NCBI RefSeq assembly: GCF_003334255.1
Contig: NZ_QOWU01000205.1
Source of the DNA: Escherichia coli
GTDB taxonomy: Bacteria; Pseudomonadota; Gammaproteobacteria; Enterobacterales; Enterobacteriaceae
DNA length: 640 nucleotides
Reading direction: 5' to 3' (one strand)
Part shown: positions 105 through 640 of the stretch, one piece after another
How positions within the stretch are numbered: the first letter of the stretch is position 1
How the letters are laid out: the number at the start of each line of letters is the position of its first letter
The notes under the pieces: model-generated
Database searches by the model: none
What the model saw: only the letters and a program-made list of their open reading frames with translations
Told to the model about the DNA's origin: nothing
Made by a program: the position numbers and the translations under genes

Positions 105-640
105 CCAGTCTCCCCGAATTACTCATTTCATGCAGCGATGACACGATGTCACTGACTGGCGTAATAACCCCCCGGCGCTGGCTGGTCAGAATATCGGTTT
201 CCGCTCTGAGTTTATCTCTGGCGGCGTTGATTCTTTCCCGGTCAGCACGAAGTTTTGGTGCTGTTTCCGCCAGAACGTCCAGCGTCAGCAATGAGCGTTC
301 AATTGACTCGATACGGGCAATATTCCGGTCAAGGGCCTGTTCTGCTTTGAGTATTTTGTCGTACAGGGCAACACGGGTTTCCACGTCAGCCGCCTCTTTC
401 AGGTCGGCGAACATTTTTTTCAGTGTTCCTGTTACTGAAAGTGCGCGGGCCCGGGTGAACACCAGTTCATCGAACAGCACCATATCGGACGCATCATCCA
501 TGAGGTTATCTGCCTCAAGATACTTCGCATATCCACGGTGTCTCACGGCGTGGGTGTTACGGTCGCTAAACCGGGCAACGGGGTGAGGATTGCCCGATCT
601 GCTGTTGCGTTTCGTTTCTGCCGAATTTGCGCAGTTTTTT
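85..640 (-). CDS. Hypothetical charged helical (probable coiled-coil) protein, likely 5'-partial. The certain part is 85..546 (153 aa, stop TGA at 87-85). Product unknown; possibly a phage/mobile-element structural, scaffolding-like or coupling protein.
   Basis: Provided minus-strand ORF 85..546, re-translated by hand and matching the track. Composition is protein-like (heptad-like spacing of L/I/V/A between charged residues, acidic tail ...GRLDDIPEE), whereas the opposite-strand frame is Ser/Arg/Ala-rich like an antisense shadow. The track's start at 546-544 is GTG with no purine-rich Shine-Dalgarno upstream (minus strand AACACCCACGCC-GTG). The same frame stays open from 546 to 640 (KNCANSAETKRNSRSGNPHPVARFSDRNTHAV) with no ATG/GTG/TTG, so the gene probably starts beyond the window. 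Alternative internal start ATG 501-499 (GAGG 11 nt upstream) cannot be excluded. Confidence 0.7.
   Translation of the reverse strand, partial: KNCANSAETKRNSRSGNPHPVARFSDRNTHAVRHRGYAKYLEADNLMDDASDMVLFDELVFTRARALSVTGTLKKMFADLKEAADVETRVALYDKILKAEQALDRNIARIESIERSLLTLDVLAETAPKLRADRERINAARDKLRAETDILTSQRRGVITPVSDIVSSLHEMSNSGRLDDIPEE
110..115 (-). promoter_or_regulatory. Shine-Dalgarno-like ribosome-binding site (GGGGAG) for the downstream gene, embedded in the 3' coding sequence of the upstream gene
   Basis: Minus-strand sequence TCGGGGAGACTGGATG: GGGGAG, then 5-nt spacer ACTGG, then ATG at 104-102. It is the only strong purine-rich motif at canonical spacing from a start codon in the window. Confidence 0.4.

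Follow-up and report, generated by a model that had tools for sequence, protein, structure and literature searches.

Open reading frames at the edge of an Escherichia coli prophage fragment: the interior of a small terminase gene with a candidate pac site in its linker-coding DNA

Where does the gene at the right edge of this DNA begin? The stretch analysed, 640 nucleotides (nt) of Escherichia coli sequence and referred to here as the window, carries a long gene on its minus strand, and between positions 543 and 640 all three frames of that strand are open. Does a gene enter from outside the window, or does one gene end here and another start at an overlapping GTG? We consider it virtually certain that window 543-640 on the minus strand is the interior of a single gene, terS, which encodes the small terminase subunit (TerS) of a 933W-like (Sepvirinae-type) E. 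coli prophage, and that the reading frame comes in from upstream. The feature is the inside of an already annotated gene and as such is known and ordinary. The DNA that encodes a linker in the same protein is a candidate packaging (pac) site.

Translation from positions 640, 639 and 638 bears out the initial annotation, which had reported the three open frames, and all of its coordinates hold. The frame from 640 (frame 1) runs for 24 codons, KKLRKFGRNETQQQIGQSSPRCPV, to a TAG at 568-566, and the frame from 638 (frame 3) for 31 codons, ending in AILTPLPGLATVTPTP, to a TGA at 545-543. The frame from 639 (frame 2, the main frame) meets no stop until the TGA at 87-85. The TGA of frame 3 does overlap GTG 546-544 as GTGA, an arrangement that had been likened to stop/start coupling, and it is also correct that no Shine-Dalgarno sequence lies ahead of this GTG; the preceding 20 nt (gcgaccgtaacacccacgcc) contain neither GGAG, GAGG nor AGGA and no purine run of the Shine-Dalgarno kind. 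A listing of open reading frames (ORFs) gives a 153-residue ORF from the GTG, spanning 85-546. As anticipated, the choice of start alters both length and domain content: the product is a 268-residue TerS with an N-terminal helix-turn-helix (HTH) and a long linker, not a protein of 153 residues.

Two E. coli chromosomes, UCPROB-001 and UCPROB-002, match the window at 100% identity, the latter within a prophage. At the UCPROB-002 locus (L001) the window corresponds to 4001-4640 and its minus strand is the plus strand of the locus. The coding sequence (CDS) annotated there in the main frame occupies L001 3750-4556, which is 807 nt or 268 residues, and starts at an ATG placed 251 nt (84 codons) upstream of the right edge of the window. 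The reading favoured by the initial annotation, in which the main gene extends upstream past the window, is borne out by these 84 further codons. An in-frame stop soon after position 640 had been named as a test of that extension; in UCPROB-002 the frame stays open to ATG-3750 and a stop occurs only beyond, a TAA at L001 3726-3728, 8 codons 5′ of this ATG, which is the first start codon thereafter.

The 268-residue protein matches the profile phrog_370, 'terminase small subunit', with an E-value of 6.6e-119 and with residues 1-268 on positions 1-284 of the 284 in the profile. The TerL product matches phrog_2 (terminase large subunit) with an E-value of 5.3e-52. The gene order in UCPROB-002 is holin, lysozyme, an Rz-like lysis gene, terS, terL (568 residues) and portal. 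The end-to-end match and the position after the lysis cassette, before terL and portal, are both those of a 933W-type headful TerS (PHROG 370), a class named 'headful (933W type)' from a phylogeny of TerL (PMC7317114). The gene limits, the family membership and the gene order are established. Phage P13374 has the same gene pair in the same layout, annotated terS and terL. Records with at least 90% identity to the window comprise 425 from E. coli and 192 from phages, the latter mostly Shiga toxin (Stx)-converting short-tailed phages, and in the 192 phage records the gene is labelled terS or 'DNA packaging protein' with a CDS of 807 nt. The terS of 933W, VT2-Sakai (H0127) and P13374 and orf12 of Stx2-86 are the same gene, 807 nt and 268 residues long, with approximately 92% protein identity.

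Comparison with relatives supports one continuous protein. A search of 5.8 billion proteins provided 295 homologues, the full-length examples being of 265-308 residues with 97-100% query coverage and originating from Escherichia, Salmonella, Citrobacter, Dickeya, Pectobacterium, Yersinia, Serratia and Aeromonas. The homologues begin MAKxDW, with M1 invariant and A2, K3, D5 and W6 nearly so. We used protein alignments of 19 and 58 sequences (the larger being the query and 57 homologues of 265-308 residues from Enterobacterales and Aeromonas) and a codon alignment of eight genes. The frame conserved at the protein level, which the initial annotation had proposed to check, is the main frame; it is unbroken across residue 116 in the 57 homologues, and the 58-sequence alignment is continuous through residues 85-120. 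The stretch in question is conserved as ETK(R)..G..GNPxP..F...N..A.KH.GYAKYL, with little or no variation at K94, P104, A115 and H118. With tblastn one retrieves the whole 268 residues as a single piece, even from the Aeromonas phage phiARM81mr, which shares 40% identity. Pairwise nucleotide differences peak at the third position of the main frame over residues 117-268, with 2116 against 901 and 753 at the other two positions.

The GTG and the off-frame stop behave differently from this frame, and that neither is conserved is equally well established. In the codon alignment, P13374, two Salmonella genes and one Citrobacter gene have GTA as codon 116, a second E. coli allele has GTC and phiARM81mr has AAG; more distant homologues carry R, L, Q or H at this residue. 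A coupled pair of the GTGA/ATGA kind is expected to conserve the downstream start codon, and here the position is GTG, GTA, GTC or AAG. Such a pair is also expected to conserve an upstream coding ORF that ends at the overlap; the equivalents of the off-frame stop are TAA, TCA or AGA, the stop being lost in the GTC allele of E. coli and in phiARM81mr (L009 and L007).

Some observations weigh against a single gene that starts at ATG-3750. The Shine-Dalgarno sequence of this ATG is weak (GAGGA, 13 nt upstream). A sister allele of 283 residues has another 5′ cassette while being 99.1-99.8% identical over the window, although there too the main frame continues upstream. The third-position excess is weak in residues 85-116 (433 against 368 and 290) because they belong to a fast-evolving mosaic linker. 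Lastly, 74 codons of the +1 frame that ends at TGA-545 are free of stops, and every E. coli allele has within them a 67-residue ORF with an ATG start (L001 3895-4098). Closure of this frame upstream had been offered as a means to exclude coupled genes. That test was run and, with the frame open, it could not exclude them; given the +1 ORF, the openness of a frame cannot by itself exclude a second product. Coupled genes are rejected because of the conservation evidence, not because of frame closure.

Why are the other two frames open? At the base composition of the window an open frame of 24 codons has a probability of 0.34 and one of 31 codons a probability of 0.24, and about 2-2.5% of shuffled sequences keep all three frames open over 24 codons or more. 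As the main frame is that of a genuine gene, what has to be accounted for is the two off-frames, which have a joint probability of approximately 0.08. The pattern is within chance expectation. The linker (residues 46-115) is A-rich, T-poor and nearly without hydrophobic codons. A stop in the +1 frame requires T at the second codon position and such codons are very few in residues 46-116; those that occur yield TCG, TTG and TTA in the +1 frame, and then GTG-AGA yields TGA. It is this hydrophilic composition that leaves both off-frames open. The frame 1 stretch contains no ATG, GTG or TTG, and a TGA at L001 3998-4000 closes it directly outside the window. The GTGA 'stop/start overlap' is, judging by the sequence comparisons, a chance tetranucleotide. 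The gene model is settled as a 268-residue TerS and GTGA should not be annotated as a gene junction.

Could a second product be made all the same? Coupling of an upstream +1-frame gene, with its stop at TGA 545-543, to a separate 153-residue protein from GTG 546-544 would draw on a GTGA overlap that is real and on the open +1 frame with its 67-residue ORF. PHROGs also holds an N-terminal family of 115 residues, phrog_30708, part of which matches the +1 translation, and a C-terminal family of 138 residues, phrog_23182. However, the 67-residue ORF begins within a 12-bp tandem repeat, its sequence is wholly different between alleles, and its sole database match is phrog_30708, the profile of which also matches the true N-terminus of TerS; that family looks like one built from frameshifted terS fragments. 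The single split version examined as DNA, in strain G6/7 (L002 2707-3556), is a mutant of the 283-residue allele with a 2-bp deletion of GC, AATGCGCATGG to AATGCATGG, relative to the intact allele of phage PhiR12_3. The deletion explains the 'frameshifted terminase' pseudogene of RefSeq and, because this split copy is a deletion mutant, phrog_30708 and phrog_23182 are most readily understood as pieces of terS genes that are frameshifted or mis-called. Neither the GTG nor the stop is conserved in relatives, the GTG lacks a Shine-Dalgarno sequence, and the main-frame protein is conserved through the junction in the 58 aligned sequences, which leaves coupled genes, in our judgement, with a negligible probability.

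We regard dual coding by programmed frameshifting as extremely unlikely. Slippage of ribosomes or of RNA polymerase on the A-runs of the linker (e.g. GAAAAAAAC at the window edge) would append to the HTH an alternative tail ending at TGA-545, made beside full-length TerS. The linker-coding DNA does contain A6-A7 runs, relatives in E. coli and Aeromonas keep the +1 frame open over 74-140 codons, and the +1 translation matches a portion of the phrog_30708 profile, but the openness follows from the hydrophilic composition of the linker and the +1 peptide differs entirely between alleles with no conservation of its stop. No Rfam frameshift element or other RNA family was matched at a permissive threshold, and we find no conserved slippery site, alternative product or stimulatory element of the kind that marks programmed frameshifting or slippage. 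Recoding was considered for G6/7 and ruled out, the sole 'frameshifted' copy examined having a plain deletion of a GC dinucleotide when set against the intact 283-residue PhiR12_3 allele. An internal start, at GTG-546 or at the ATG of Met131, might instead produce a shorter C-terminal isoform devoid of the DNA-binding domain alongside the full-length protein. The helical core predicted with AlphaFold2 begins near residue 130, and the 138-residue proteins of phrog_23182 begin at the position of Met131. Against this, neither codon is preceded by a Shine-Dalgarno sequence, relatives do not keep a start codon at Val116, homologues carry M, I or F at residue 131, and gene-calling on frameshifted copies explains the PHROG entries; such an isoform is very improbable.

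The single 268-residue TerS is predicted to comprise several distinct regions. An AlphaFold2 model built from the 58-sequence alignment has a mean pLDDT (predicted local distance difference test) of 70. It displays an N-terminal bundle of three helices (residues 6-20, 24-31 and 35-41; pLDDT 76-88), a segment without confident structure from 46 to 116 (pLDDT about 30-47, below 50), a short helix (113-121), a long hairpin of helices spanning 130-239 with pLDDT above 90, and a C-terminal helix at 245-258. The predicted layout is an N-terminal HTH at 6-41, a disordered, hydrophilic linker of low complexity at 46-116, the hairpin and the terminal helix, and by inference the protein would have the DNA-binding head, oligomerization core and TerL-binding tail that are usual for a TerS. 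Neither the single protein nor the 58-sequence alignment found a family in Pfam, where the only matches were HTH ones below threshold, and NCBIfam gave no match for TerS, its fragments or TerL. Searches of PDB sequences with the single protein and with a profile returned chance matches only (E > 0.1), and Foldseek comparison of the model with the PDB returned generic coiled coils only (E > 0.1) and no link to a solved TerS. RefSeq names both TerS and TerL (L001 3750-6243) 'hypothetical protein'. With that label, and with neither Pfam nor NCBIfam holding a model for either protein, there is an annotation gap to fill.

The predicted layout resembles that of T4-type gp16, in which a DNA-binding region at the N-terminus is followed by a long central helical hairpin and then by a C-terminal segment. 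The likeness is one of predicted architecture; unlike a relative of gp16, the window TerS has no similarity to it that is detectable by sequence or by the fold search.

The gene is a mosaic. The right edge of the window falls at a recombination junction, and genomes sharing 99-100% identity across the window carry, upstream of AAAAACTGCGCAAATTCGG, one or other of two unrelated cassettes. The 100% matches and the 933W-type phages have allele A, with an HTH ending NTARTRIKMGK followed by (IDHx)n. Allele B, the 283-residue form of E. coli prophages and of phage PhiR12_3, called 'terminase' in RefSeq, matches the window from the right edge onwards (99.1-99.8% identity) and differs in its 5′ cassette, in which the HTH ends GTARRYIKLRK and is followed by SAQKNAQK repeats with seven TGCGCA; the window allele has ARTRIK and IDHE repeats in their place. 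The (IDHx)n segment is encoded by a 12-bp tandem repeat, AAATCGATCATG, present 4.4 times at L001 3886-3938, 63-115 nt past the right edge of the window. Every unit includes CGATCA and with it a GATC (Dam) site, and the strains checked have between 4 and 7 copies (5 in L015, 7 in protein P0002).

Within the window there is a further mosaic block covering residues 96-111 (Table 1). Its two alleles are of equal length and cannot be aligned as DNA; the window has the GNPHPVARF type, compared with the RLLPPSNAF type in the 933W and P13374 phages. Both types are found also in Salmonella and Citrobacter relatives. Whether two frameshifts could have turned the GNP type of block into the RLL type was examined by eye; the idea was set aside, as no convincing alignment emerged for the DNA or for the off-frame translations.

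The linker-coding DNA contains an array of short repeats. In every non-A allele examined TGCGCA occurs 4-7 times at gene nt 130-310, and in the Aeromonas phage with 40% protein identity all seven copies of a 5.9-kb locus lie inside 84 nt of terS. Arrays lie at L005 1335-1513, L007 2647-2730 and L093 1638-1701, and boxes of allele A at L001 3984-3989 and 4008-4013. A sample of 20 distinct terS genes provides 111 boxes. Their flanks are A-rich, with the consensus AAAANTGCGCAAAA, and their spacing peaks at 9-12 nt and 22-24 nt. The hexamer is read in three frames, as xxT-GCG-CAR (x-A-Q/H) in 71 boxes, TGC-GCA (C-A) in 19 and NTG-CGC-A (L/V/M-R-K/R) in 21. When synonymous codons were permuted 2000 times within each gene, with protein and codon usage kept, the mean was 0.4-1.6 boxes compared with the 4-7 observed, and in 12 of 13 non-A alleles none of the 2000 permutations reached the observed count. 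The use of three frames and the permutations point to a constraint that acts on the DNA of the array rather than on the encoded protein. For allele A, that of the window, the excess of TGCGCA is not significant alone (p approximately 0.1); this allele has only two TGCGCA, at L001 3984 and 4008 (the latter being window 628-633), in addition to four copies of the GATC-containing repeat, counted as CGATCAT.

The sister allele allows the array to be placed in a whole phage genome. In the 62-kb genome of PhiR12_3 seven TGCGCA lie within 200 nt at terS and elsewhere there are at most two per 200 nt, which is the arrangement of a pac-type motif cluster: one short motif, unique in the genome as a cluster, in or next to terS. 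This is the densest hexamer cluster of the genome, with the exception of one 7-bp tandem array. That array, GCGACCA, has at least 29 copies per 200 nt at approximately 21501-21700 of PhiR12_3 (PV340552.1, L096) and falls within an ORF close to the late-gene region, the annotated product being an EmrB/QacA-like 'hypothetical protein'.

The repeat motif follows the type of the N-terminal head (L001, L005, L008, L093, L094 and L095; terS nt 1-340). ARR[YH][IL]K heads are always paired with TGCGCA and the ARTRIK head of allele A with CGATCA. Klebsiella phage RCIP0098 has another head type and six copies of GTACGCA, and a fourth type, beginning MDMEALKSDY, has three copies of TCCGTCC with two or three of the inverted GGACGGA. 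In Klebsiella phage ST405-OXA48phi1.3 an ARRYIK head and a six-box TGCGCA array are fused to an unrelated Pfam Terminase_2 core.

What might such an array do? The boxes in three frames, their excess over codon usage and the change of motif with HTH type together make the array a candidate pac site. We would put at even chances a reading in which the linker-coding DNA of this TerS family doubles as the pac site and is read by the HTH encoded just upstream, head and site forming a portable cassette. An array of 4-7 hexamers, about one helical turn apart and flanked by A-tracts, would be bound by that HTH. The motif would be TGCGCA in most members, CGATCA with its Dam site in the 933W-type allele of the window, and GTACGCA or TCCGTCC with two other heads. 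The cassette would recombine between phages, and it occurs also as the fusion to the Terminase_2 core. As a candidate, an HTH-recognized pac element of the 933W-type headful class appears the most economical reading of the array.

To our knowledge the pac site of this class has not previously been defined, and the reading, if true, would define it. It would also explain the low-complexity linker peptide, the sequence of which would be dictated by DNA. Packaging specificity decides which DNA 933W-like phages, Stx-converting phages included, put into capsids, and a pac candidate defined by sequence makes the question of the packaging site directly testable. Nothing relevant emerged from searches of the literature on pac in 933W and Stx phages, on TGCGCA in connection with terminase, or on virion-end or binding data; we note that one paper reports, oddly, that PhageTerm classed a 933W-like phage as 'Mu-like' (PMC7946995).

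Comparison with characterized systems is informative on both sides. The pac site of P1 lies in pacA and consists of seven TGATCA/G hexamers, the Dam methylation of which controls cleavage. As in P1, there is a hexamer cluster in the small-terminase gene and, in the window allele, four GATC-bearing CGATCA, spaced at 12 bp, a short way upstream of the window. Unlike P1, most members of the TerS family use TGCGCA, which lacks GATC. In P22 and Sf6 pac is a single site of approximately 22 bp inside terS, and SPP1 has the boxes pacL and pacR. In common with these, the recognition site would be in or beside the gene of its reader, an arrangement by which specificity and site move together, and here HTH type and repeat motif co-vary. 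The present candidate differs from P22 and Sf6 in being an array of 4-7 phased hexamers in linker-coding DNA, next to a TerS core without a Pfam or PDB relative.

Table 1. Positions of features in the 640-nt window and the evidence for each
Feature	Window position	Strand	Evidence
Flagged stretch, TerS residues 85-116 (KNCANSAETKRNSRSGNPHPVARFSDRNTHAV): C-terminal end of linker and start of short helix 113-121	543-640	-	Translation; AlphaFold2; homologues
GTG, internal codon Val116, not a start	544-546	-	GTA/GTC/AAG in relatives; no Shine-Dalgarno
Off-frame (+1) TGA, chance product of GTG-AGA	543-545	-	TCA in L009, AGA in L007
Off-frame (+2) TAG from TTT-AGC (F108-S109)	566-568	-	Translation; frame also shut just outside window
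Mosaic block, residues 96-111, alleles NSRSGNPHPVARFSDR (window) and IRGSRLLPPSNAFSQR (933W/P13374 type)	559-607	-	Alignment columns 378-426
TGCGCA palindrome (codons Cys87-Ala88), 3′-most box of array, candidate TerS-binding (pac) element	628-633	.	Gene nt 259; kept in all allele-A loci
terS, partial (codons 85-268 of 268 and TGA stop 87-85)	85-640	-	100% identity to UCPROB-002; phrog_370
terL 5′ end (first 34 codons)	1-104	-	Annotated CDS L001 4537-6243; phrog_2; P13374 layout

At the other end of terS the window holds the start of terL. A scan of the terS region for promoters and terminators found no promoter-like site and one terminator-like match, which is not above shuffle expectation. 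The two genes overlap by 20 nt, from the terL ATG at 104-102 to the terS stop at 87-85, and the 933W/P13374-type Stx phages have the same 20-nt overlap and the same order of terS, terL and portal. The Shine-Dalgarno sequence of terL, GGGGAGA at 115-109, is a good match and lies inside terS. Given the overlap and this sequence, the real translational coupling in the window is at the terS/terL end and not at GTG-546.

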